A stretch of DNA of 64,000 nucleotides. Source: Patescibacteria group bacterium (GTDB lineage: Bacteria; Patescibacteriota; Minisyncoccia; Phycocordibacterales; SBAW01). This document shows, in pieces, positions 9,303 to 54,884 of the stretch (position 1 is its first letter; every line of letters starts with the position of its first letter). The stretch covers positions 6,558-70,557 of the forward strand of contig JAIEMM010000010.1 in NCBI GenBank assembly GCA_019752125.1, given 5' to 3'. The notes below the pieces were generated by a model that was given only the letters and a program-made list of their open reading frames with translations, was not told the DNA's origin and did no database searches. A program made the translations under genes and the position numbers.

Positions 9303-11444
9303 ATGCCAGACAAGGTCCCGGAAAAGTTTAATACGCCCTACCAACCGCAAGATACCGAAACCGCTATATATAAAAAGTGGGAGGAAAGCGGCTTTTTTAA
9401 CCCTGACAACCTCCCAGGAGAACGTACGGAAACATTTACTATTGTACTTCCACCTCCAAACGTTACTGGGACGCTGCACTTAGGCCATGCCTACGAAGAC
9501 ACCTTGCAAGACATTGTTACGCGTTTTCAACGAATGAGCGGTAAAAAGGCGTTATGGATTCCTGGCAGCGACTCGGCAGCAATTGCCACCCAAGCGCGCG
9601 TTGAAAAAAATCTCCAAAAAGATGAAGGCAAAACGCGTCACGATATTGGCCGCGAGGAACTCGTAAAACGAGTTAAAGAATTTGCGAAACAAAGCGAAAG
9701 CACTATTTTGAATCAAATTCGTCGTATGGGTGCGTCGCTTGATTGGTCGCGTTACGCATACACACTCGACGACAAGCGCAACTTGGCAGTGATGACCGCC
9801 TTTAAAAATATGTATGACGCAGGTCTTATTTATCGCGGCCATCGCATTGTTAACTGGGATCCAAAAGGTCAGACGACTATCTCTGATGACGAAATGGTCT
9901 ACCAGGAAGAAAAAAGTAAATTTTATTATTTGAAATACGGTCCATTTACTATCGCGACGGCACGCCCTGAGACAAAGTTCGGCGACAAATACGTTGTTGT
10001 TCATCCAGACGACGCTCGCTACGCACAATTTACACATGGTCAAAAGATAGAGCTTGAATGGATTAACGGTCCTATTACGGCAACTGTGATTAAAGACACT
10101 GCGTCTGACCCAGAAATTGGAACCGGCGCCATGACTATCACTCCTTGGCATTCTGTTATCGACTTTGAAATTGCGGAGCGTCATGGACTGGATAAAGAAC
10201 AGATTATCGACAAATACGGCAAGCTACTTCCTGTTGCGGGAGAATTTGCTGGTCTCAAGATTGCTGATGCCCGTGAGAAGATAGTTGAAAAGTTACAAGC
10301 AAAAGGGCTCGTAGAAAAAATTGACGAAGACTATGTACACAACATTGCAGTCTCCGAACGCACAGGCGCCGTTGTTGAACCACAGATTATGGAGCAGTGG
10401 TTTATCGGCGTAGATAAACCTTTCGTAATCCCTCATTCTGAAATTCCAGGGATTGCCAGTGGCAGTGAGACAACGTTGAAAGAACTTATGCGCGCTTCGG
10501 TTGAGAGCGGCGCAGTTGATATGCCGCAGGATGGTTTCCGTAATACATACTTCCATTGGATAGGTAACTTGCACGACTGGTGCATTAGCCGACAAATTTG
10601 GTTTGGGCACCGTATTCCCGTTTGGTACAAGGATTCAGAAATATATTGCGGAGTAGAAGCACCAGAAGGCGAAGGTTGGGAGCAAGATCCTGACGTACTC
10701 GACACATGGTTCTCCTCTGCCCTTTGGACGTTTTCAACACTTGGCTGGCCAGAAAAAACTTCTGATCTTACGACATTTCATCCAACCTCATTCATGTCCC
10801 CTGCCTACGAGATTCTCCAGCTTTGGGTATCACGCATGATCCTTATGAGCACCTTCCATTTGGGTCAGGTGCCATTTAAAAAAGTGATGATTCACGGCCT
10901 TGTACGCGCAAAAGATGGACGCAAATTCAGCAAATCCCTTAACAACGGTGTCGACCCTCTTGAGATGATCGAAAAATATGGCGCAGACGCTCTTCGTATG
11001 GGGCTTATTGTTGGTGCGGCTATTGGTAGTGATATTCGTTTCGACGAACAAAAAATTAAAGCCTATAAACTCTTTGCAAACAAACTCTGGAACGTTACAC
11101 GCTTCGTACTTTCTCAAGAAAATACTGGTGAAGTAAAAGCGGAGTTGAAAGAAGAGTTTGAGGCAATGGCGGCAGATGTCACAAAGGACATGCAGGAATA
11201 TCGCATCTATATGGCAGCAGAAAAACTCTACCACTATGTATGGGACCGCTTTGCTGCTGAAATTTTGGAAGAAAGCAAAGGCATCCGCCAGCCGGCGGAC
11301 GAATACGGAGCAACTCTTTATTACATCTTAGAAAATGTACTCAAGCTCCTCCATCCCTTTATGCCATTTATTACAGAAGAAATTTGGTCTAGCATGCCGG
11401 AGAAGAACTCCCTGTTGATGGTCGAGGAGTGGCCTTCAAAGTAG
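9303..11444 (+). CDS. valS: valine--tRNA ligase (compact, no C-terminal coiled coil)
   Basis: PPPNVTGTLHLGHAYEDTLQD (HIGH), KFSKSLNNGVDP (KMSKS), CP1 editing-like region; 713 aa. Confidence 0.85.
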   Translation: MPDKVPEKFNTPYQPQDTETAIYKKWEESGFFNPDNLPGERTETFTIVLPPPNVTGTLHLGHAYEDTLQDIVTRFQRMSGKKALWIPGSDSAAIATQARVEKNLQKDEGKTRHDIGREELVKRVKEFAKQSESTILNQIRRMGASLDWSRYAYTLDDKRNLAVMTAFKNMYDAGLIYRGHRIVNWDPKGQTTISDDEMVYQEEKSKFYYLKYGPFTIATARPETKFGDKYVVVHPDDARYAQFTHGQKIELEWINGPITATVIKDTASDPEIGTGAMTITPWHSVIDFEIAERHGLDKEQIIDKYGKLLPVAGEFAGLKIADAREKIVEKLQAKGLVEKIDEDYVHNIAVSERTGAVVEPQIMEQWFIGVDKPFVIPHSEIPGIASGSETTLKELMRASVESGAVDMPQDGFRNTYFHWIGNLHDWCISRQIWFGHRIPVWYKDSEIYCGVEAPEGEGWEQDPDVLDTWFSSALWTFSTLGWPEKTSDLTTFHPTSFMSPAYEILQLWVSRMILMSTFHLGQVPFKKVMIHGLVRAKDGRKFSKSLNNGVDPLEMIEKYGADALRMGLIVGAAIGSDIRFDEQKIKAYKLFANKLWNVTRFVLSQENTGEVKAELKEEFEAMAADVTKDMQEYRIYMAAEKLYHYVWDRFAAEILEESKGIRQPADEYGATLYYILENVLKLLHPFMPFITEEIWSSMPEKNSLLMVEEWPSK

Positions 11445-11460
11445 GCCTTATACTGTACGC

Positions 11461-12153
11461 ATGAGCCCAGCAGTTCTTTTGACTGCGTTTTTAGGCGGTG
11501 TTGTACCAGCATTCATCTGGCTTTTCTTTTGGCTACTTGAAGACCGCGTTCATCCCGAACCTAAGCGCTTTATTTTCTATTCGTTCATTGCTGGCATGGG
11601 TGTTGTACTTTTAGCACTCCCACTTGAACGTCTCGCCGCAGGATACTTCTCTATGAACAGTTTTGGGCTCTTTCTGTCGTGGGCCACGATAGAAGAGCTT
11701 CTCAAATTTGGCGCAGCCTACTTTGTTGCGCTACGTTTTGCTGTGTATGACGAACCTCTCGATGCGGTCATCTACCTTGTAACAGCGGCGCTTGGTTTTT
11801 CAGCCCTGGAAAACGCACTGTTCTTGTGGAGCCCTCTCCAACAAGGAGACATGTTACGCGCACTAGTTACTGAAGACTTGCGTTTTATGGGCGCGACACT
11901 ACTACACACACTCGCATCAGTTACCGTTGGTATTTCACTCGCACTTTCGTTTTATATGCCGTCCGAATTACGAAAACGATACGTCATTGTCGGAGTTGTC
12001 CTTGCAATATTGTTGCATACCACTTTTAATTTTTTTATACTGAAATTAGGAAACTCGGCAACATTTTGGATTTTCCTGTGCATTTGGATCGGCGTCGTTG
12101 CAGCGTTGCTTATGACTGAACGAATTAAACAGCCGATTAAAGAATATTGTTAA
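11461..12153 (+). CDS. PrsW-family intramembrane metalloprotease-like protein
   Basis: Polytopic membrane protein with EELLK (EExxK), FMGATLLH (FxxxH) and LLHTTFNFF (HxxxN) motifs. Confidence 0.6.
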   Translation: MSPAVLLTAFLGGVVPAFIWLFFWLLEDRVHPEPKRFIFYSFIAGMGVVLLALPLERLAAGYFSMNSFGLFLSWATIEELLKFGAAYFVALRFAVYDEPLDAVIYLVTAALGFSALENALFLWSPLQQGDMLRALVTEDLRFMGATLLHTLASVTVGISLALSFYMPSELRKRYVIVGVVLAILLHTTFNFFILKLGNSATFWIFLCIWIGVVAALLMTERIKQPIKEYC

Positions 12154-12159
12154 ACTTAC

Positions 12160-12675
12160 ATGGCAAAAGAAAAACGATCATTATTTGAATGGCTCACAGG
12201 CGGCACCGCTGCTGACGGCGATTATTCTTTTGAAGACTTGGAAAGCGGTGGTTCTTCATACACACCAAAAACCCCGGCAAAAGGGGCAAAACATTTAAAT
12301 ATCGAGGTTGAAGATTCTCCAAGCGATATTACTGAAGAAGAACCAGATGGCGAACTTGCTGTAGACGTATATCAAACCCCAACCCACATCATCATCAAGG
12401 CTATGATCGCAGGCGTACGCCCAGAAGATCTCGACGTTTCAATAACTCGCGACATGGTTACGCTGCGCGGCAAGCGCGAACGCCACACAGAAGGCACCGC
12501 AGGCGACTTTTTCTTCCAGGAACTCTACTGGGGCTCATTCTCTCGAACTATAGTCCTCCCGCAGGAGGTTGAAATTGAAGAAGCAGAAGCTACAGAAAAA
12601 CACGGCCTACTCACCATCAAGCTTCCAAAACTCGACAAAGGCCGCCAGGCTAAATTGAAGATTAAGTCTAACTAG
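12160..12675 (+). CDS. Hsp20/alpha-crystallin small heat-shock protein
   Basis: ACD core LAVDVYQTPTHIIIKAMIAGVRPEDLDVSITRDMVTLRGKRE...GLLTIKLPK. Confidence 0.8.
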   Translation: MAKEKRSLFEWLTGGTAADGDYSFEDLESGGSSYTPKTPAKGAKHLNIEVEDSPSDITEEEPDGELAVDVYQTPTHIIIKAMIAGVRPEDLDVSITRDMVTLRGKRERHTEGTAGDFFFQELYWGSFSRTIVLPQEVEIEEAEATEKHGLLTIKLPKLDKGRQAKLKIKSN

Positions 12676-31944: not shown

Positions 31945-32388
31945 ATGGACTTTGATTTCAGAAAGACCTTCGGGCCTTTGTTCAAGAACTATCCCATGAT
32001 GTGGTTTATCGCCGGCCTCGCGGAGATCGTCCTCTTCATCTGGATCTTCATCAGCCCCTTCGACGACGGCTTCGATACGCGTCGCATCCAGGCCATGGTG
32101 TTCATCCCCTTCGTGATGCTGCTGCTGGCTATGACACACAGATACGGCGAAGCCCTCCCTGCTGTAAGGTTCTGTCTTCTCGCCAACAGCGTCACATTGG
32201 CGACCGACAGTGCCCTCTCAATGCCGACGGAGATGACCAGCCTCTTTGGGCCGGTACCCAAGTATCCCCTATATGGATACAGCGTGGCTTCTTGGCCAAC
32301 ACTGGCGACACAGCTAGGCATGGTCCTCCTGATGCTTCTAGTGCTTCACTTCTTCTTGAAGAAGCGGCGCGAAGGCTGCTGGGCATGA
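31945..32388 (+). CDS. hypothetical membrane protein (GC-rich island)
   Basis: GGAGGG RBS, 4 TM helices, hairpin terminator ccgtccggcttcaaaaccggacgg plus T-run at 32400-32430. Confidence 0.5.
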   Translation: MDFDFRKTFGPLFKNYPMMWFIAGLAEIVLFIWIFISPFDDGFDTRRIQAMVFIPFVMLLLAMTHRYGEALPAVRFCLLANSVTLATDSALSMPTEMTSLFGPVPKYPLYGYSVASWPTLATQLGMVLLMLLVLHFFLKKRREGCWA

Positions 32389-32399
32389 ACGCAATACGA

Positions 32400-32432
32400 C
32401 CACCGTCCGGCTTCAAAACCGGACGGCTTTCT
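32400..32432 (+). terminator. intrinsic terminator
   Basis: ccgtccggcttcaaaaccggacggctttctttttt. Confidence 0.65.
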
Positions 32433-32520
32433 TTTTTCCACTTTTACAAAGGACGATCTTTTGTAAAAGAAAAACCTCTGGATGTTGAGTCCAGAGGTTC
32501 TTTGTATGTGTTGAGGATTC

Positions 32521-33369
32521 TTACCGACGAACCGCCAGCTTGAGCCAGCGCACCGCGATGAGCTCGTGGAGCACGAACCCCAGGCCAGCGCCGATGAGAG
32601 TCCCAGCGACGAAGTTGCCGAGGCCGAAGCCCAACAACGCACCGAGTCCAGCCGCCACGAAGCAAATCGCGCGCCGCGAAGAGTGCACGCGGATGAACGT
32701 CGCGGCGATGAACTTCGACGCAGACATCATGGCGACGTCGAGAAAGCTGGAGATTGCGCCGATGATGGTCGGCGAAAGTTTCACCAGCCACCACAGACCT
32801 TTCAGCCCCAGGTAGATGACGTTGACGGGATTACCGTCGCGCGCCATCTCCCAGTACATTGTCTCCGCGCAACGAAGTCTGTCTTCGTATTCGGAGTCGG
32901 TCATCTCCGCGGGGCGCCTGAGAGACTCAAACGATGCCCAGGTTCCGAACGTCAAGCTGGCGGCTGGCCAGAAGCAGAAGACGCCGTAGAAAGCCCCCCA
33001 TACGATACCGTCCATGCTTATCCCCGCTGTCCTGTCGAGAAAGCCGACACTGACCAGCGCGACACCAAGCCCAAGGATGGATGTGGCGCATGCAGCTGAC
33101 ATGCCCACCCAGCACGCCATGTAGGTCCGCCAGTAGGCACGGTTGGGCTGCCAGGTGATGGTTGCACGCCAGGAGTCGGCGACGCCAGCGCAGAACTGTC
33201 GGAAGTCGATCGTCACATAGGCGACGATGCCTCCCGAGAGCATGCCGACGGCGGCACACCACCAGCGCAAGGTCGGTGACCAGTAGGTGCTGAGCTCGAG
33301 GCCACCGAGCGAACCGATGAGGGCGCCAAAGGCGCACACAACGGCAACAAGCCAAGATTCGCGCTTCAT
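32521..33369 (-). CDS. hypothetical polytopic membrane protein (GC-rich island)
   Basis: 282 aa, at least 6 TM helices, about 65% GC; convergent hairpin cctctggatgttgagtccagagg downstream. Confidence 0.5.
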   Translation of the reverse strand: MKRESWLVAVVCAFGALIGSLGGLELSTYWSPTLRWWCAAVGMLSGGIVAYVTIDFRQFCAGVADSWRATITWQPNRAYWRTYMACWVGMSAACATSILGLGVALVSVGFLDRTAGISMDGIVWGAFYGVFCFWPAASLTFGTWASFESLRRPAEMTDSEYEDRLRCAETMYWEMARDGNPVNVIYLGLKGLWWLVKLSPTIIGAISSFLDVAMMSASKFIAATFIRVHSSRRAICFVAAGLGALLGFGLGNFVAGTLIGAGLGFVLHELIAVRWLKLAVRR

Positions 33370-33835
33370 TTCACTTCCTCCATGTAGGGCTCAAACACAG
33401 TGTTAAAGAGCCGGTTTAACTGGAATGTTTATACTAGGCATTATAGACATTGTCAATCATACTTACCAAGGACTGTCCTCAGTAATTGTGCTTGGGGTGT
33501 AATTGTGGCAAAATATCCTCGCTCTAACTAGAGAGGATGATCTTTGCCGCACATGCCGCTCGACGCCTTACACCCCCGCAAATCTGGGGGCAAAGCGAGA
33601 GGACACTTGTACGTTCTTGCTGTACAAGAGAACCAGGTCGACGCGCCCAAGAAACCTCGGAGGGTCTGGGAACGACCGCCTCCGTATAAAATTCGGGACG
33701 TGGGCGCGATGAGCACACAGCCCATCAATTCCCCCACACCGGCCGGAATTCGCTCAGGAATTGATCGATTTCGGGCTCGTTATGGCGACTCGTTCAAGAC
33801 ATAGTAGCGGCACCACGCCGCTATTTTCTTTTATA

Positions 33836-34585
33836 TTAACGCAAGAGTTTCTCTAACTTTTTCTCACTCACTCCCCTCTTTAATGCATCGCGGAGTAACG
33901 CGGCACGCTTTTGACGCGTAGACCCTTCGAACTTAGATTGCTTAACGTAGTGTTTGCTTTTGTTGTTTATACGAACACCACTCGCCTTCAAGTATGAGCC
34001 GTAGTCCATCAACGCCGCGTAGAAATCCCTTGGCTCCATCTTCGACTTTTTCAAATCTCGCTCTATTAAAGGCAAAATCTCGTTATCTGCAATCTTCTTC
34101 TCTTGGGAGGCTGAACCTCCCAAATTTTCCGGCGAGGTCCGACCTCGCCTAAAATAATGATGAAGAAAAACTGTACGAATGTTAGTTTCGATAAAGACTT
34201 CGGGTCTATTGTATGAAAATACTGAGACTGCTCGGGCAGTATAAGGGCCAACGCCTGGCAGGCTCTCGAGAAATTCTGTGGTGAATTTTCCGGCAAGGTC
34301 CGACCTCGCCACAACCACCTTAGCGGCTTGGTGGAGAAACTTTGCGCGGCGGTTGTAGCCTAGTCCCTGCCATTCTTTAAGAACGTCTGAAAGAGATGCT
34401 TTTGCCAACGCAGAAAACGTTGGGAAACGTTTGAGAAACGCCTCGTACTTAGGTATCACCCGCGCAACTTGAGTCTGTTGCAGCATCAATTCAGACACTA
34501 AGATCTTGTATGGGTCGCGTGTTTTGCGCCACGGAAGATGCGTTCGCCCAGATTTTTTATAGAAGCTTTTTAGCTCTCGCAACAT
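33836..34585 (-). CDS. HhH-GPD DNA glycosylase (MutY/Nth-like, no Fe-S cysteine cluster)
   Basis: LPWRKTRDPYKILVSELMLQQTQV, GLGYNRRA, HhH LPGVGPYTARAVSVFSYN. The C-x6-C-x2-C-x5-C [4Fe-4S] ligands are absent. Confidence 0.7.
   Translation of the reverse strand: MLRELKSFYKKSGRTHLPWRKTRDPYKILVSELMLQQTQVARVIPKYEAFLKRFPTFSALAKASLSDVLKEWQGLGYNRRAKFLHQAAKVVVARSDLAGKFTTEFLESLPGVGPYTARAVSVFSYNRPEVFIETNIRTVFLHHYFRRGRTSPENLGGSASQEKKIADNEILPLIERDLKKSKMEPRDFYAALMDYGSYLKASGVRINNKSKHYVKQSKFEGSTRQKRAALLRDALKRGVSEKKLEKLLR
34123..34149. repeat. palindromic mini-repeat copy 1 (aattttccggcgAGGTCCGACCTcgcc) inside the glycosylase CDS
   Basis: 27-nt element, 26/27 identical to copy 2 at 34284-34310, with an internal 9-bp palindrome ggcgaggtc/gacctcgcc. 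Confidence 0.7.
34284..34310. repeat. palindromic mini-repeat copy 2 (aattttccggcaAGGTCCGACCTcgcc) inside the glycosylase CDS, different reading frame
   Basis: Same 27-mer 161 nt downstream; translated in a different frame from copy 1 (VARSDLAGKF versus FRRGRTSPENL). Confidence 0.7.
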
Positions 34586-50484: not shown

Positions 50485-51000
50485 TTACATCTTCCGACTG
50501 TCGTATGCCCAATGTAGGACAGCTTGCCGCTGCTTGGCATGACACTTAAAGTCTCCGACACGGCAGCTGTTCTTAATCTGTGCAGTGTGGCGGCGCATCG
50601 CTACCCATCGTTTGATCTGTCGCTCGTCGTCAGGGCCTCGACGGCCCATGTAGTACCTGCAGTACCACTGAAACCAGCCGCGCGGGTCATCTTTATATAT
50701 CCACCCCTTCTTACGCCACACGGAAAGTGGTTGGCTTGCATTCACACCAAAGAAGTTAAGATTCGCGTCGGGCGTATACACGCCCTTCTTTTGAAATTTT
50801 GCTTTAGTAAACCAATCCTTAGGAAATTCTTTTACACAGTCGCGCATATACACGCCACCAAAAACACCGAGTGCGAGCATTTGCTTGGGCGTAAGCTCCG
50901 GCTTGAACCGAGGGTCAAAATTTTTTCCTGCAGGTTCGGTTAGCGTGTATACATACACCTTCTGCACCTTGTCATGTACCCGAACAGTTTTGGTTCTCAT
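50485..51000 (-). CDS. hypothetical protein (conserved-looking, unknown function)
   Basis: 171 aa, W/Y/R-rich: FGGVYMRDCVKEFPKDWF, PRGWFQWYCRYYMGRRGPDDERQIKRW. Confidence 0.4.
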   Translation of the reverse strand: MRTKTVRVHDKVQKVYVYTLTEPAGKNFDPRFKPELTPKQMLALGVFGGVYMRDCVKEFPKDWFTKAKFQKKGVYTPDANLNFFGVNASQPLSVWRKKGWIYKDDPRGWFQWYCRYYMGRRGPDDERQIKRWVAMRRHTAQIKNSCRVGDFKCHAKQRQAVLHWAYDSRKM

Positions 51001-51003
51001 TTT

Positions 51004-51225
51004 TTATTCCTTAATCTCAATAATTTTCGAAGGTGTCTTATGTCCGCGGACAATGCGCACGCGGGACTTCGGCACGCCAAAGTGCGCAGCAACAAGCATC
51101 ACAACTCGTGCATTCGCAGCGCCTTGCTCGGGCTTTTCTTTGACGGAGATCTTGAGGCGCTTGGCTGAAATTTCTTCAACCCCATCCTTCCTCGCCCCCG
51201 CCGTTACTCGTACACTTAGTTGCAT
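51004..51225 (-). CDS. DUF167 (YggU-like) protein
   Basis: LSVRVTAGARKDGVEEI...ISVKEKPEQGAANARVVMLVAAHFGVPKSRVRIVRGHKTPSKII fits the YggU family. Confidence 0.65.
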   Translation of the reverse strand: MQLSVRVTAGARKDGVEEISAKRLKISVKEKPEQGAANARVVMLVAAHFGVPKSRVRIVRGHKTPSKIIEIKE

Positions 51226-51302
51226 AGAAACTCCTTTTTTAGAAATGGTAAGATTGATGAGAGGCGTTCGTCTTATTATACAAGTTAACCAGTAATTAAT
51301 TT

Positions 51303-51989
51303 ATGGATAAAAAATCAACTCTAGCTCAGGGGCTCGTAGGCGCACTTGTACTAGCTACTACACTTCTACCAGCAGCGGCTCTTGCCCGCGACGGAGAAGA
51401 CTCGAGGACGACTCTGCCGGTCAATGTTTCTACGCATATAGAATCTGAAGGCAGTGACGACAGTATATCTGCCGACTCCGCAACAACAGCCACAGTGCGA
51501 GGCGATAATGAGGATAAATCTAATGATTCTTCTGGACGCAAGTTAGAGGAGAACGATAATGAAATAGAGAGTGAGATAGAGATCGACCAAGAGTCTGCTC
51601 ATAATGCATCAACAACTATCGACGCACCGGAACACGTTTCCAATCGTGGAGAACTGCGCAGTTTCCTAAACCACGTCATCAAAGCCGATGACCGAATTTC
51701 TGACGTACGCGTATCTTCGAGCACGATTGAAACCCACTACCAAATGCCTGCAAAATTCTTGTGGACAATTCCGATGAACCTTACCGCAAAGGTATCGGTT
51801 GATAGCAACGGCTCAGTAAATATTACGTATCCGTGGTATGCGTTTCTCTTTGCGAAGCACGACAGTGATCTTGCTGCACAATTAGAACAATCAGCAGCTT
51901 CTACGGGCACCACTACCCTATCTGCAAGCGCCCAAGCACACTTGCTTAACCTCCTGTTCTCAAACCTCAAAACTTCAACGGGGCAGTAA
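51303..51989 (+). CDS. secreted acidic hypothetical protein
   Basis: Signal peptide ...LLPAAALA, then a D/E/S-rich low-complexity region. Confidence 0.45.
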   Translation: MDKKSTLAQGLVGALVLATTLLPAAALARDGEDSRTTLPVNVSTHIESEGSDDSISADSATTATVRGDNEDKSNDSSGRKLEENDNEIESEIEIDQESAHNASTTIDAPEHVSNRGELRSFLNHVIKADDRISDVRVSSSTIETHYQMPAKFLWTIPMNLTAKVSVDSNGSVNITYPWYAFLFAKHDSDLAAQLEQSAASTGTTTLSASAQAHLLNLLFSNLKTSTGQ

Positions 51990-52106
51990 ACTACTGGTGC
52001 GTTTGTAAAAACCCAAGGCCCTCAAATATCCCTTGAGCCCCTTCATATTGGGGCTTATTGGCATGATGTCGCGGAGGAGGGCAACGTATTGCATATTACA
52101 AAACAG

Positions 52107-52132
52107 TTTTTCTTATTTTGAGGTGTCTGACC
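52107..52132. repeat. direct repeat copy A (tttttcttattttgaggtgtctgacc)
   Basis: 24/26 identical to 54851-54875. On the minus strand the similarity extends to about 40 nt (GTCAGACnCCnCAAAATAAGAAAAAnTnTTnTGTAAT). Confidence 0.6.
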
Positions 52133-52550
52133 CCAACTCTCCAAGGTATTTCTTCATTAGCTCAACCTTTTCTCTAACTTCTTCAAGTAACTTGTCAGAG
52201 ATGGGAGAATTTGTGGCATGTTCCAAAATAGGCCTTACTGACTGAATCTTTCTTCCAAATTGATCCATCCACTCATACCTTGGCAACATCCAAAGATGGA
52301 AACCGTGCGCAGAATCCTCATTCTGAAAAATATATACATCTTTACAACCAAGAACTTCTTCCATTCCTTTCCTTATTTTTTTTACTAATGGAGTAAATTC
52401 CGAAGCTTCCTCGTCTGTAAAATCTCCGATTGAACGAATGTTTCTAATCGTTGAAACAATAAAAAATGCGGGAATTGGAACTTCCCAATCTTGAGCAACT
52501 TTAAAATTTTTGGTCTCAATGACCACCTCATTTGGGAAAAGCACTTTCAT
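52113..52550 (-). CDS. HIT-like hydrolase-fold protein (degenerate histidine triad)
   Basis: FKVAQDWEVPIPAFFIVSTIRNIRSIGDFTDEE and VYIFQNEDSAHGFHLWMLPRY match the HIT fold pattern, but the triad reads H-x2-H-x-W instead of HxHxH. Confidence 0.5.
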   Translation of the reverse strand: MKVLFPNEVVIETKNFKVAQDWEVPIPAFFIVSTIRNIRSIGDFTDEEASEFTPLVKKIRKGMEEVLGCKDVYIFQNEDSAHGFHLWMLPRYEWMDQFGRKIQSVRPILEHATNSPISDKLLEEVREKVELMKKYLGELGSDTSK

Positions 52551-52610
52551 GTCTTTATTATAGCAAAAAGAAAAAGCCTTAAAATATTTCTATATTAAGG
52601 CTTAAAACCA

Positions 52611-53576
52611 TCAGATTTTCCTTAACCTACCCCCTACCCACTTCTCGAAATGGTGCGGGAGATTGTAGTTATTACAGTTCCAGGCTGTCGCAATTGGTTG
52701 TTCTAGCAGAGAGCCAAAGGTGATTTTTGTCCCCAAAGATACATCTTCGGTCGCTATCTGACCATCCGGGAGGATCAAGCAGTAGAATCGATTGAAGTCC
52801 GATTCTCTGTATGAATACCGTATGGACATCGAAGGGTAGGCACGCCTAGCTTTTTGGACCCCTTCATTTATTACATCTTGTTCGGGTCGAAGCTGCTGGT
52901 ATATGGATCGTGCACGGCCAGCAGGAATAGTCCACGACAAAGCCCAGTCTCTGACCCCCAGATCGTTGAGAACTGCGGACATCTCCACTATCTGAGACTG
53001 ATTCCAAACATTAAGCGCCGTGAGAACCCTTAGGTTTATATTGTGCTTCACGTAAAGCTTAATAGCTTGGAGGGTTTCCTGCCAAGCATTACCTCGCCTC
53101 TGCCTACTTGGGCGAATCCTATTGTTCAACTCACTTGTAGCTGCGTCTAGACTTATTTCGACGCGAGTACAAACACGGAGGCTCTCCACGTTCTCCTGCT
53201 CAATGAATGAGCCGTTTGTCCCAAGAACAACGCTTACGCCACCATCAACTAACTTTTGAACAATGGAGAAGATGTCGTCTCTCAAGAGCGGCTCACCGCC
53301 AGAAATGACGACTCTCATCACACGAGCTTCAATAATTCTTTCCGCAATCGTAAGACACTCATTTGTAGAAAGTACTACACTAGGCAACTCTTCAACATTT
53401 CCGTAACAATGAATGCATTTCAAATTACAGCCCCCTACAATGACCCAACCTATTCCGATTGGGGATGATGGTAGCGGCTGATCTCCATTCATAACCTCAG
53501 CTGAGAATTCATCATTCTGGCGGTTGTAGATGACTCTTCCCCAAATCTCATCACGTATAAGATCTTTGTTTGTCAC
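52611..53576 (-). CDS. radical SAM enzyme (single CxxxCxxC cluster, no SPASM/twitch cysteines)
   Basis: GGCNLKCIHCYG, VISGGEPLLRDD, LGTNGSFI, EISLDAATSELNN. 321 aa, in a region of about 40-44% GC. Confidence 0.8.
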   Translation of the reverse strand: MTNKDLIRDEIWGRVIYNRQNDEFSAEVMNGDQPLPSSPIGIGWVIVGGCNLKCIHCYGNVEELPSVVLSTNECLTIAERIIEARVMRVVISGGEPLLRDDIFSIVQKLVDGGVSVVLGTNGSFIEQENVESLRVCTRVEISLDAATSELNNRIRPSRQRRGNAWQETLQAIKLYVKHNINLRVLTALNVWNQSQIVEMSAVLNDLGVRDWALSWTIPAGRARSIYQQLRPEQDVINEGVQKARRAYPSMSIRYSYRESDFNRFYCLILPDGQIATEDVSLGTKITFGSLLEQPIATAWNCNNYNLPHHFEKWVGGRLRKI

Positions 53577-53699
53577 GACCTTTCTCCTTTCGAGGAACCG
53601 TTGGTATTCTATGCACAGTCAATACCAAAAGTTATACATGGTCAATGTTGCCAAAAAAGTTAGTTTTTGCCGCCTGACCCCAAGCTCAATCCTATTTGA

Positions 53700-54035
53700 T
53701 TACATCGGACGGACTTCCATTATTTCAATGGTTGCTCCAGGAATACCTAGATGGGGATGATCCTTAAAAAGTTCTGCCACCGCTTCTGCAGATTCTCCCT
53801 GCGCATACGACGAGATCATCATGTCATTTTTTACATCTTCTACACCAGATGCGCTTACGCGCTTTGTTTTTCCAAGGGCGATCGTGTTGAGGACTAAATC
53901 CTTATGAACAAGCATCCACGCGTCCCAATCCGCTTTCATCTTTGCCTCAACCTCTTTACGTTCCTCTTCCGGCTTCTTCATCCACTCCTCCATACCTGCT
54001 ACTGGGGCCATGTATATAACGGTAAAATTTTTCAT
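53700..54035 (-). CDS. hypothetical small protein
   Basis: Internal Met (MKNFTVIYMAPVAG...) of ORF 53700..54344; 111 aa. Confidence 0.35.
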   Translation of the reverse strand: MKNFTVIYMAPVAGMEEWMKKPEEERKEVEAKMKADWDAWMLVHKDLVLNTIALGKTKRVSASGVEDVKNDMMISSYAQGESAEAVAELFKDHPHLGIPGATIEIMEVRPM

Positions 54036-54122
54036 ATAGTTCAGTTTAGCATTAACCAATACTTTTCTTATGAAGAATGAGTGTAGGAATAAACTCAGCT
54101 TACTGATATACATACAGAATAC

Positions 54123-54815
54123 ATGACAGATTTCCCTATGCGGATCAACAAATATTTGGCGTTTAAGAAGCACTCGACCAGGCGCGAGGCGGATACGCTT
54201 ATTGAGCGAAAACTTGTAACCATCAACGGAGTACACGCAAAGCTTGGTGACAAAGTGTTGGAGACCGATGTCGTAAAGGTAGATGCGCCAGAGCGAGTAT
54301 ATGAATACTACGCCTACAACAAACCGCGCGGGGTTATTACCCACTCACCCCAAGGTGATGAAGTATCTATTGCAGGCAGCATCCATATGCCTTGGATATT
54401 CCCCCTCGGCAGGCTCGATAAAGATTCAGACGGTCTTATACTCCTGACCAATGATGGCCGCGCGACTAATGCCCTGCTTAACCCAAAGCATGAACATGAA
54501 AAAGAATATGTCGTCACAACGCTAGACAAGCTGCCAAAAGATTTTAAACGAAATATGGAACGCGGCGTCGACATCGGCGACTACATTACAAAAAAATGTT
54601 CAGTGAAGATATTGAGTGATAATAGTTTCTCAATTGTTTTGACTGAGGGCAAAAAACATCAGATCCGCCGCATGTGCGGAGCGTTTGGCCAAAGTGTCGT
54701 TCAACTTACACGTGTACGAATTATGGACATACTTCTTGGGAAGCTAAAGGGAGGTATGTACCGAGCAATTCAAAAAACAGAACTCAGCACTTTTTTACAG
54801 GCAATTGGGTTATAA
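54123..54815 (+). CDS. rsuA: RsuA-family pseudouridine synthase (S4 domain + catalytic GRLD)
   Basis: S4-like N-terminus RINKYLAFKKHSTRREADTLIERKLVTINGV; catalytic LGRLDKDSDGLILLTNDG; HQIRRM. Confidence 0.8.
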   Translation: MTDFPMRINKYLAFKKHSTRREADTLIERKLVTINGVHAKLGDKVLETDVVKVDAPERVYEYYAYNKPRGVITHSPQGDEVSIAGSIHMPWIFPLGRLDKDSDGLILLTNDGRATNALLNPKHEHEKEYVVTTLDKLPKDFKRNMERGVDIGDYITKKCSVKILSDNSFSIVLTEGKKHQIRRMCGAFGQSVVQLTRVRIMDILLGKLKGGMYRAIQKTELSTFLQAIGL

Positions 54816-54850
54816 AAGGCTACTCCCTTTACTTCCGCATTACACAATAC

Positions 54851-54875
54851 TTTTTCTTATTTTGTGGGGTCTGAC
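54851..54875. repeat. direct repeat copy B (tttttcttattttgtggggtctgac)
   Basis: Partner of 52107-52132; sits just 3' of the stop of the minus-strand gene ending at 54885. Confidence 0.6.
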
Positions 54876-54884
54876 GCTGACTCT

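Follow-up and report, generated by a model that had tools for sequence, protein, structure and literature searches.

A 46-nt sequence occurs twice in the same orientation in a 64,000-nt stretch of the patescibacterial contig JAIEMM010000010.1 (GCA_019752125.1; this whole stretch is referred to as the window), where the two copies bracket about 2.7 kb carrying genes for a HIT-like protein and a radical SAM protein, a small open reading frame (ORF) and rsuA. The two sequences are best explained as paralogous copies of one non-coding, lineage-specific unit that marks the 3′ edge of exchangeable modules, and the interval between them was shown not to be a mobile unit. The wider reading places the 46-nt unit in a cargo hot spot driven by recombination, as a discrete element at its boundaries or junctions. 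This reading combines demonstrated with inferred parts, and we put its chances at about even; far more secure is the conclusion that the copies are not attachment (att) sites of the 2.7-kb block. Protein searches assigned the window to a bacterium of the Candidate Phyla Radiation (CPR), within the Paceibacteria/Adlerbacteria group.

The window contains the degenerate 25-mer TTTTTCTTATTTTGWGGKGTCTGAC exactly two times, in the same orientation (52107-52131 and 54851-54875), and it was absent from 100 dinucleotide-preserving shuffles. This bears out the original prediction of a repeat at 52107 and 54851. Ungapped extension of the 25-mer gave a 46-nt direct repeat (52095-52140 and 54839-54884, spaced by 2,744 nt) with 83% identity in the repeat search and 38/46 by a count from both sequences, in agreement with the predicted extension to about 40 nt at about 80%. 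In a gapped alignment of the two copies, similarity was lost abruptly at either edge. On the minus strand the unit reads AGAGT[TGGG/CAGC]GTCAGAC[A/C]CC[T/A]CAAAATAAGAAAAA[CTG/GTA]TT[T/G]TGTAAT, and its copies are as follows:

52095..52140, minus strand, copy 1 of the 46-nt unit (minus-strand sequence AGAGTTGGGGTCAGACACCTCAAAATAAGAAAAACTGTTTTGTAAT)
54839..54884, minus strand, copy 2 of the 46-nt unit, the resident copy (ortholog at 8117-8162 of the relative L003, introduced below)

As predicted, each copy is found at the 3′ side of a minus-strand gene. The HIT-like ORF (52113..52550) takes its last nine codons and TAA stop from copy 1; a DUF1697 pseudogene stub has its ATG 1 nt beyond the end of this copy. 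Copy 2 starts 1 nt past the stop codon of a membrane-protein ORF (54885..55628, minus strand) and is located between this stop and that of rsuA. Both copies are thus housed in convergent spacers, copy 1 opposite the plus-strand gene 51303..51989 and copy 2 opposite rsuA (54123..54815, plus strand). The predicted low GC content of the block held in part: its 43.1% is below the 47.5% of the window, and the HIT gene is at 37%. This gene is, however, the only clearly low one (the radical SAM gene, the small ORF and rsuA are at 45-46.5%), and the lowest-GC DNA (38.8%, 54884-56572) is outside the repeat-bounded block, so GC does not delimit it.

The following relatives were compared with the window:

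L003 (the same as L083), Ca. Adlerbacteria RIFOXYC1_FULL_48_26, rsuA product 94% identical in amino acids
L094, GCA_019749995.1, rsuA 93%
L095, GCA_026397405.1, rsuA 81%, more distant
L091, L092 and L093, with homologs of the 228-aa gene at 51303..51989
L001 and L002, with the closest radical SAM/HIT pair (HIT 91%)

BLASTN against L003 divided this part of the window into conserved and variable segments, of which 51001-51236 and 53696-54883 align at 81-88%:

50485-50994, aligned with L003 4845-5354
51001-51236, aligned with L003 6371-6606 (DUF167)
51237-53695, no L003 counterpart; L003 has a 124-aa DUF2200 gene instead
53696-54883, aligned with L003 6987-8161 at 88% (small ORF, rsuA and copy 2)
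54884-56572, no L003 counterpart; L003 has a 519-aa and a 133-aa gene instead
56573-56710, aligned with L003 10201-10338 (tRNA-Gln)
57253-62579, aligned with L003 10914-16201

A backbone running from DUF167 through the small ORF, rsuA and variable cargo to tRNA-Gln is common to three Adlerbacteria-like genomes (the window, L003 and L094), and the more distant L095 keeps at least rsuA, cargo and tRNA-Gln, with 83% DNA identity in rsuA. In L094 the first gap in this backbone holds DUF2200 and PG_binding genes and the second a YgjP-like gene. The part of the backbone that falls between the two copies is:

53700..54815, small ORF (53700..54038, minus strand) and rsuA (54123..54815, plus strand), syntenic in L003 and L094

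These two genes show 86-88% DNA identity to L003 and L094, the two closest relatives, and the common gene order makes the rsuA/small-ORF half of the block syntenic core. The variable DNA forms two separate segments, neither of which coincides with the repeat-bounded block. Copy 2 was shown to be the resident, orthologous copy: the 18.1-kb L003 stretch has a single copy of the unit, at 8117-8162 (ATTACACAATACTTTTTCTTATTTTGAGGTGCCTGACCCTGATTCC), which is orthologous to copy 2 and lies directly past the stop codon of an unrelated, DitA-like gene, not of the membrane-protein gene. The unit was not found in the rsuA-side spacer of L094 or L095.

The original prediction had read the repeats as attL/attR or target duplications of an integrated element made up of the HIT-like, radical SAM, small-ORF and rsuA genes. 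L003 and L094 have half of that block in synteny: the small ORF, rsuA and copy 2 belong to the L003 backbone, the small ORF and rsuA to that of L094, and both genomes have the same DUF167 and tRNA-Gln sides. L095 also keeps rsuA beside tRNA-Gln. The segment missing from the relatives is offset, at 51237-53695 and not 52107-54875. Neither of the two closest relatives presents the expected empty site with a single repeat copy, as L003 keeps the small ORF and rsuA beside its one copy and L094 is without a copy. The HIT gene has had its 3′ end replaced instead of restored. About 40 ORFs of the window, among them all genes called between 44 and 62.5 kb, were scanned against Pfam without a match to Phage_integrase, Resolvase/Recombinase or a transposase; blastn gave no match to phages or plasmids; and no terminal inverted repeats or target-site duplications were seen at the unit ends on reading the flanking sequence. 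An origin of the repeat as a tRNA-Gln-derived att site was rejected, as it has no convincing similarity to the tRNA 3′ end.

The first variable segment is the one that contains copy 1. Its features are:

51237..53695, window-specific mosaic segment, absent from L003 and L094 (which have a DUF2200 gene there, with or without a PG_binding gene)
51303..51989, plus strand, gene for a 228-aa secreted-looking protein, within the module 51233-51996
51974..52093, minus strand, unannotated DUF1697 pseudogene stub comprising the first 39 codons (MQYVALLRDIMPISPNMKG...)
52113..52550, minus strand, HIT-like (Ap4A-hydrolase-like) gene
52611..53576, minus strand, radical SAM gene

This 2.46-kb segment, which contains copy 1 and is not bounded by it, was shown to be assembled from at least four unrelated sources. 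The module 51233-51996 (the 228-aa gene with the DNA upstream of it) recurs beside other neighbours in L091, L092 and L093, at 75-79% identity. The DUF1697 stub matches the N-terminus, or 5′ end, of an intact gene in L094 (1270..1743) and a second relic in L091 (5195-5272). The module made up of the radical SAM and HIT genes (52142-53608) shares 78.6% identity with L001/L002 and had no match in the other sequences compared, and 53609-53695 has no homolog. Exact-protein look-ups of the HIT, RsuA, radical SAM and 228-aa proteins returned no record with these start codons.

The junction can be seen in the HIT alignment. HIT proteins in relatives are 138-141 aa long and end in KKYLEAVE or similar, directly before the stop; in the window the protein ends in KKYLGELGSDTSK, read from copy 1, with the last four sense codons replaced. 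DNA homology to L001 stops at ACCTTG, which is followed by possible GTTG microhomology and then by the repeat. Homology of the HIT gene to its closest relative ends at the repeat edge, which identifies copy 1 as a true junction where horizontally acquired DNA was joined by recombination, through an imprecise crossover inside the ORF.

The radical SAM and HIT genes are kept together only here and in L001/L002. The HIT-like family is common to CPR bacteria and DPANN archaea, elsewhere as a solitary gene, and a recurrent mobile radical SAM/HIT pair was rejected, the more distant HIT homologs being solitary and in housekeeping contexts. In L001 a different direct repeat, about 170 nt long (3617-3785 and 5381-5548, 71-81% identical, containing GGTTCGAA), lies on both sides of the pair; no Rfam match was found for it. 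The radical SAM protein matched the PADLOC prokaryotic viperin (pVip) models at 5.7e-25, a weak viperin-like signal only; we do not claim it as a prokaryotic viperin, since it scored 70 bits against a cutoff of 180 with the NCBIfam viperin model and its PDB neighbours are generic radical SAM enzymes.

The second variable segment occupies the gap between copy 2 and tRNA-Gln:

54884..56572, minus strand, variable cargo segment between copy 2 and tRNA-Gln
54885..55628, minus strand, membrane protein gene
55663..56571, minus strand, gene for a 302-aa, weakly SIR2-like protein (0.003)
56575..56646, minus strand, tRNA-Gln(CUG), conserved far border of the cargo gap, with the first cargo ORF starting 4 nt after it

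The gap between rsuA and tRNA-Gln was shown to be a cargo hot spot with four contents in four genomes: the membrane protein and the 302-aa SIR2-like protein in the window (54884-56646), a DitA-like protein (519 aa) and a 133-aa protein in L003 (8162-10274), a YgjP-like protein in L094 (8577-9042) and a NUDIX protein in L095 (10799-11276). The 519-aa protein of L003 matched the PADLOC DitA model at 7.6e-85 and, together with the pVip and weak SIR2 matches, this predicts a cargo that is partly defence-like. The first cargo ORF begins 4-38 nt past the 3′ end of tRNA-Gln, which suggests that the cargo may be expressed by read-through from the tRNA promoter.

The copies were compared with each other and with the L003 ortholog. 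Identity was 38/46 between copies 1 and 2, 40/46 between copy 2 and L003 and 38/46 between copy 1 and L003, so that divergence between the two copies is about equal to that of either copy from the sister-species ortholog. The differences form a mosaic, with GAGGTG and GACCC common to copy 1 and L003 and ACACAATAC common to copy 2 and L003. Based on these counts and this pattern, the duplication dates from about the time of the species split, too long ago for a fresh target duplication. Four-fold-site identity between the window and L003 was 0.69 (0.77 in rsuA), against which 40/46 for copy 2 and L003 has P = 0.005. The A/T-rich tail CAAAATAAGAAAAAGTATTGTGTAAT is identical in copy 2 and L003 at 26/26 positions, a result with a chance of about 1e-3 or less at the local neutral identity of 0.69-0.77, and the GTCAGAC-containing core is identical at 14/20, i.e. 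at about the neutral rate. As the differences sit in the core while the tail is unchanged, part of the unit appears to be under constraint.

Both edges of the unit were found again in independent comparisons. The left end (after ATTAC) is the edge of similarity between copies 1 and 2 and also the point at which homology between L094 and L003 ends (L003 8121). The right end is the edge between copies 1 and 2 (52140/54884) and between the window and L003 (54883/8161), and is within a few bases of the edge of homology between the window and L001 (52142). Three unrelated genes, for the HIT-like, membrane and DitA-like proteins, adjoin this same end. By these alignments, both ends are recurrent breakpoints and the unit is a discrete one.

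Weaker relatives of the core were sought on both strands of the window, 128 kb in total. Only four 24-mers matched copy 1 (52113-52136) at 17/24 or better, namely 52113 itself, 53660 (18/24), 54857 (19/24) and 55636 (17/24). The last three share a strand, and each lies directly downstream of a minus-strand gene. Two of these are additional to the full copies:

53659..53688, minus strand, possible degenerate core-motif copy c3 (TTGGGGTCAGGCGGCAAAAACTAA), 18/24 to copy 1, upstream of the radical SAM gene in window-specific DNA
55636..55664, minus strand, possible degenerate core-motif copy c4 (GGGATTCGGATCAGACCCTTCAAC), 17/24 to copy 1, in the 34-nt spacer between the 302-aa and membrane-protein genes

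Part of c3 may instead be a relic of the DUF2200 start. The two full and two weak copies all fall within 3.6 kb, with none elsewhere in the 64 kb. In L092, a profile of the copies found AATTGGGGTCAGTCTCCCAATATT or AATTGGGATCAATCTCCCACTATT after each of two genes inserted at tRNA-Gln; in L094, GAATCGGGATCAGGCATCAGAAATACGG follows the PG_binding gene that L003 is without. All the weaker copies are local and adjoin lineage-specific genes. At the L092 locus (11319-12651), a complete tRNA-Gln and a partial one of 68 nt (100% identical, without the 5′ four bases) flank a 1.26-kb insert, which contains two small genes (168 and 192 aa), each followed by a core-related motif of about 24 nt, and no integrase. 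In wider scans, the sole match in JGI metagenomes was a contig of the L003 organism, viral contigs gave no match to the unit and genome contigs gave none to GTCAGACNCCNCAAAATAAGAAAAA, a pattern that is too strict, as L003 has GTCAGGC. A generally enriched short motif was rejected, GGKGTCTGAC with one mismatch being observed 6 times against 4.6 expected.

In the reading that we favour, cargo would be replaced by recombination of taken-up DNA, either homologous or homology-facilitated illegitimate, and the 46-nt unit, at the edge of the cargo, would serve repeatedly as a short junction or homology anchor. The imported radical SAM/HIT pair was joined to the unit by the crossover inside the HIT 3′ end. 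Copy 1 itself most probably came in with a piece of a related genome's cargo array, or was duplicated into such a piece. The conserved A/T-rich tail may also insulate the convergent transcripts of rsuA and the cargo. CPR bacteria are reported to be competent, recombination-proficient and rich in genomic islands (PMC12455944). Homology-facilitated illegitimate recombination resembles the present case in having one end at a conserved stretch and the other at an arbitrary point with microhomology, just as the HIT gene is truncated by four sense codons at a possible GTTG within a mosaic that includes pseudogene stubs. It differs in that its anchors are usually at least 150 bp, compared to 46 nt here, where the process is inferred.

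Several observations weigh against this reading. The function of the unit is a putative one, and 46 nt is short for a RecA anchor. In L094 and L095 the cargo of this gap is exchanged in the absence of the unit, which is therefore not required there. The copies c3 and c4 and those of L094 and L092 are weak (nhmmer E values of 0.004-0.08 with profiles containing them), and their test is partly circular because the profiles include them. The 9-mer TTGGGRTCA is not enriched, with 20 occurrences observed against 20.4 expected in 1.37 Mb. The direction of change, insertion here versus loss in the relatives, rests on parsimony over three backbones, the comparison base is about five related genomes, and the copy counts cover only the 64-kb window of the source genome, the 18.1-kb L003 stretch and the fetched relatives.

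The alternative that survives best, although unlikely, is that the unit is a cis-acting RNA or transcription element of cargo-operon 3′ ends (a stabiliser, processing site or terminator/insulator) that is selected and carried along in rearrangements. Such an element would fit the position of the unit, always just past a minus-strand stop codon and, for both full copies, in convergent spacers, as well as the invariant tail and the conservation of the whole unit beyond that of four-fold sites. Cargo ORFs so close to tRNA-Gln suggest read-through transcripts that would need a defined 3′ end, and a small stem-loop is possible in copy 1, L003 and both L092 copies. These stems are, however, out of register with one another and absent in copy 2 and c3, and folding of the unit copies revealed no significant or common structure (z-scores of -0.15 to +1.1). 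An Rfam search of 51200-56700 returned only tRNA-Gln as significant, even at E ≤ 5. A canonical intrinsic terminator was rejected on either strand: the weak stem that copy 1 has on the gene (minus) strand precedes an A-rich run, copy 2 is without a stem on this strand, and the sole match in the terminator scan is on the opposite strand of copy 2. Promoter and terminator scans gave nothing above shuffle expectation. Moreover, L094 and L095 are without the unit in the same spacer. The original prediction had offered a 3′-UTR or regulatory motif as its fallback, and this idea fares better than its att sites: the weaker copies after other cargo genes fit it, although the copies are local rather than genome-wide. 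Repetitive extragenic palindromes (REPs) and intrinsic terminators also occur just behind stop codons and often between convergent genes, and some copies of the unit can likewise form a small hairpin. Unlike these, the unit has local copies only, no conserved palindrome, no U-tract past a stem and no REP-associated transposase (RAYT).

Less probable than such an element is a site-specific cassette site, in the style of integron attC, integrative mobile elements exploiting Xer (IMEX) or pdif sites, in which gene(s) and motif are moved by a recombinase encoded elsewhere. The reuse of both unit ends as breakpoints would follow from this, and modules can be read as motif-flanked (c4, membrane-protein gene, copy 2; c3, radical SAM/HIT, copy 1; and, in L092, motif, 192-aa gene, motif). 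The core GGGTCAGACCC is a near-perfect 11-nt palindrome, the A/T-rich tail contains a dif-like imperfect dyad (ACAAAAYA-N8-TATTTTGW, with 7/11 arm symmetry by eye), and no integrase in cis is expected where Xer is exploited. Against it stand the lack of a recombinase in the window, the HIT junction, which is imprecise and inside an ORF and thereby unlike conservative site-specific exchange, the radical SAM/HIT module of L001, which is without such a motif, and the statistical weakness of the extra copies.

The resemblance to integron cassette arrays lies in short modules in the same orientation, each followed by a related short motif, with contents that vary between relatives. However, the 64-kb window yielded no IntI, attI or Pc, and one junction is inside an ORF. 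The motif is 25-46 nt long without the R″/L″-L′/R′ palindrome of attC; no imperfect palindrome of 57-141 nt and no RYYYAAC ... GTTRRRY core sites were present in the unit, copy 1 having GTTGGGG and copy 2 and L003 no GTT at that position. Xer/dif-type sites are about 28-31 bp long, with two 11-bp arms and a 6-8-bp spacer, and chromosomal dif lies at the terminus. Modules that use them (IMEX and Acinetobacter pdif modules) are likewise free of an integrase and bracketed by a site of about 30-45 nt with an imperfect dyad. The unit differs in having no convincing match to the dif consensus, and its copies are direct and 83% identical over 46 nt. A terminus dif was rejected, as GC skew is monotonic through the region without a switch at 52-55 kb. 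A more specific version holds that Adlerbacteria-like CPR bacteria have an undescribed cassette system with its integrase in trans, for which the unit and its shorter relatives (core RRKTTGGGGTCAGRCNCC...) would be the recombination sites. Such a system would load small defence modules behind tRNA-Gln, where read-through from the tRNA promoter would express them, and could move parts of the array elsewhere; the radical SAM/HIT module would accordingly be flanked by c3 and copy 1. We consider this a long shot.

Equally doubtful as a cassette site in general is a 46-nt relic without function that an old segmental duplication left behind, its coincident edges and conservation being small-number accidents. 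The region is indeed a patchwork with pseudogene stubs, the core of copy 2 has diverged from L003 at about the neutral rate and the unit is dispensable in L094 and L095. A relic does not readily account for the 26/26 identity of the tail, for breakpoints that coincide at both ends in independent comparisons or for the recurrence of a related core motif in the more distant L092, again beside tRNA-Gln cargo. A coding remnant was also considered and rejected: both frames end in TAA in all three copies, but a hand count found no third-position substitution bias.

Least of all survives the att or target-duplication model of the original prediction, which is highly improbable in view of the backbone comparison above, even though it could call on direct repeats at two gene 3′ ends, on a copy 1 that is a genuine recombination junction and on the arrangement that deletion of the interval would leave (cargo, one copy, then the DUF1697 stub and 228-aa gene), which is loosely like L091, where tRNA-Gln, an HD gene and a DUF1697 stub precede the 228-aa gene.

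Taken as a whole, the locus is an ordinary variable island hot spot with one unexplained detail, the discrete, partly constrained 46-nt boundary unit. Its parallels with tRNA-adjacent islands and core defence hotspots are a fixed gap, between rsuA and tRNA-Gln, that holds different, partly defence-like cargo in four genomes, together with low-GC cargo and syntenic flanks. Unlike in those hotspots, the window has no integrase and no tRNA-derived direct repeat, the cargo is only 0.4-2 kb with its first ORF 4-38 nt past the tRNA, and a 46-nt unit that is not derived from the tRNA stands at the far edge in two genomes. If the boundary-element reading holds, the locus would be one more variable cargo hot spot, in a symbiotic CPR genome of roughly 1 Mb, and would offer a base-resolution view of small, partly defence-like modules patched in without visible mobile-element machinery. 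Should the unit prove to be a dedicated recombination site, it would represent a new cassette system; to our knowledge, the biology of mobile elements is almost unknown in this phylum. For the annotation of islands in metagenome-assembled genomes, direct repeats combined with low GC did not mark an element here.

Further rearrangements were observed around the locus. Just past tRNA-Gln, 56711-57252 has no L003 match and contains a PemK/MazF-like toxin gene (56801-57187, minus strand). Other indels nearby are L003 1146-4844 and 5355-6370 and L094 1-1743; L003 genes without a counterpart in the window include those for a P-type ATPase and a DUF1428-like protein, among others, and the GIY-YIG, DUF1697 and ATPase genes differ in order between L003 and L094. 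In L095 (3083-10726, compared with window 54123-62511) the prfB-ftsE-ftsX-pyrG block is inverted relative to rsuA, which places the rsuA/tRNA-Gln pair at a rearrangement boundary. Elsewhere in the window, GC peaks at 54-57.5% in 32001-34000, against the mean of 47.5%; no rRNA or other Rfam match was found in this peak, and the ORF 32521..33369 (minus strand) within it has no Pfam match. On the Paceibacterota contig L001, a LOOT RNA (Rfam RF03000, 75.9 bits) was detected at 1203-1317, upstream of a UvrD-like helicase gene.

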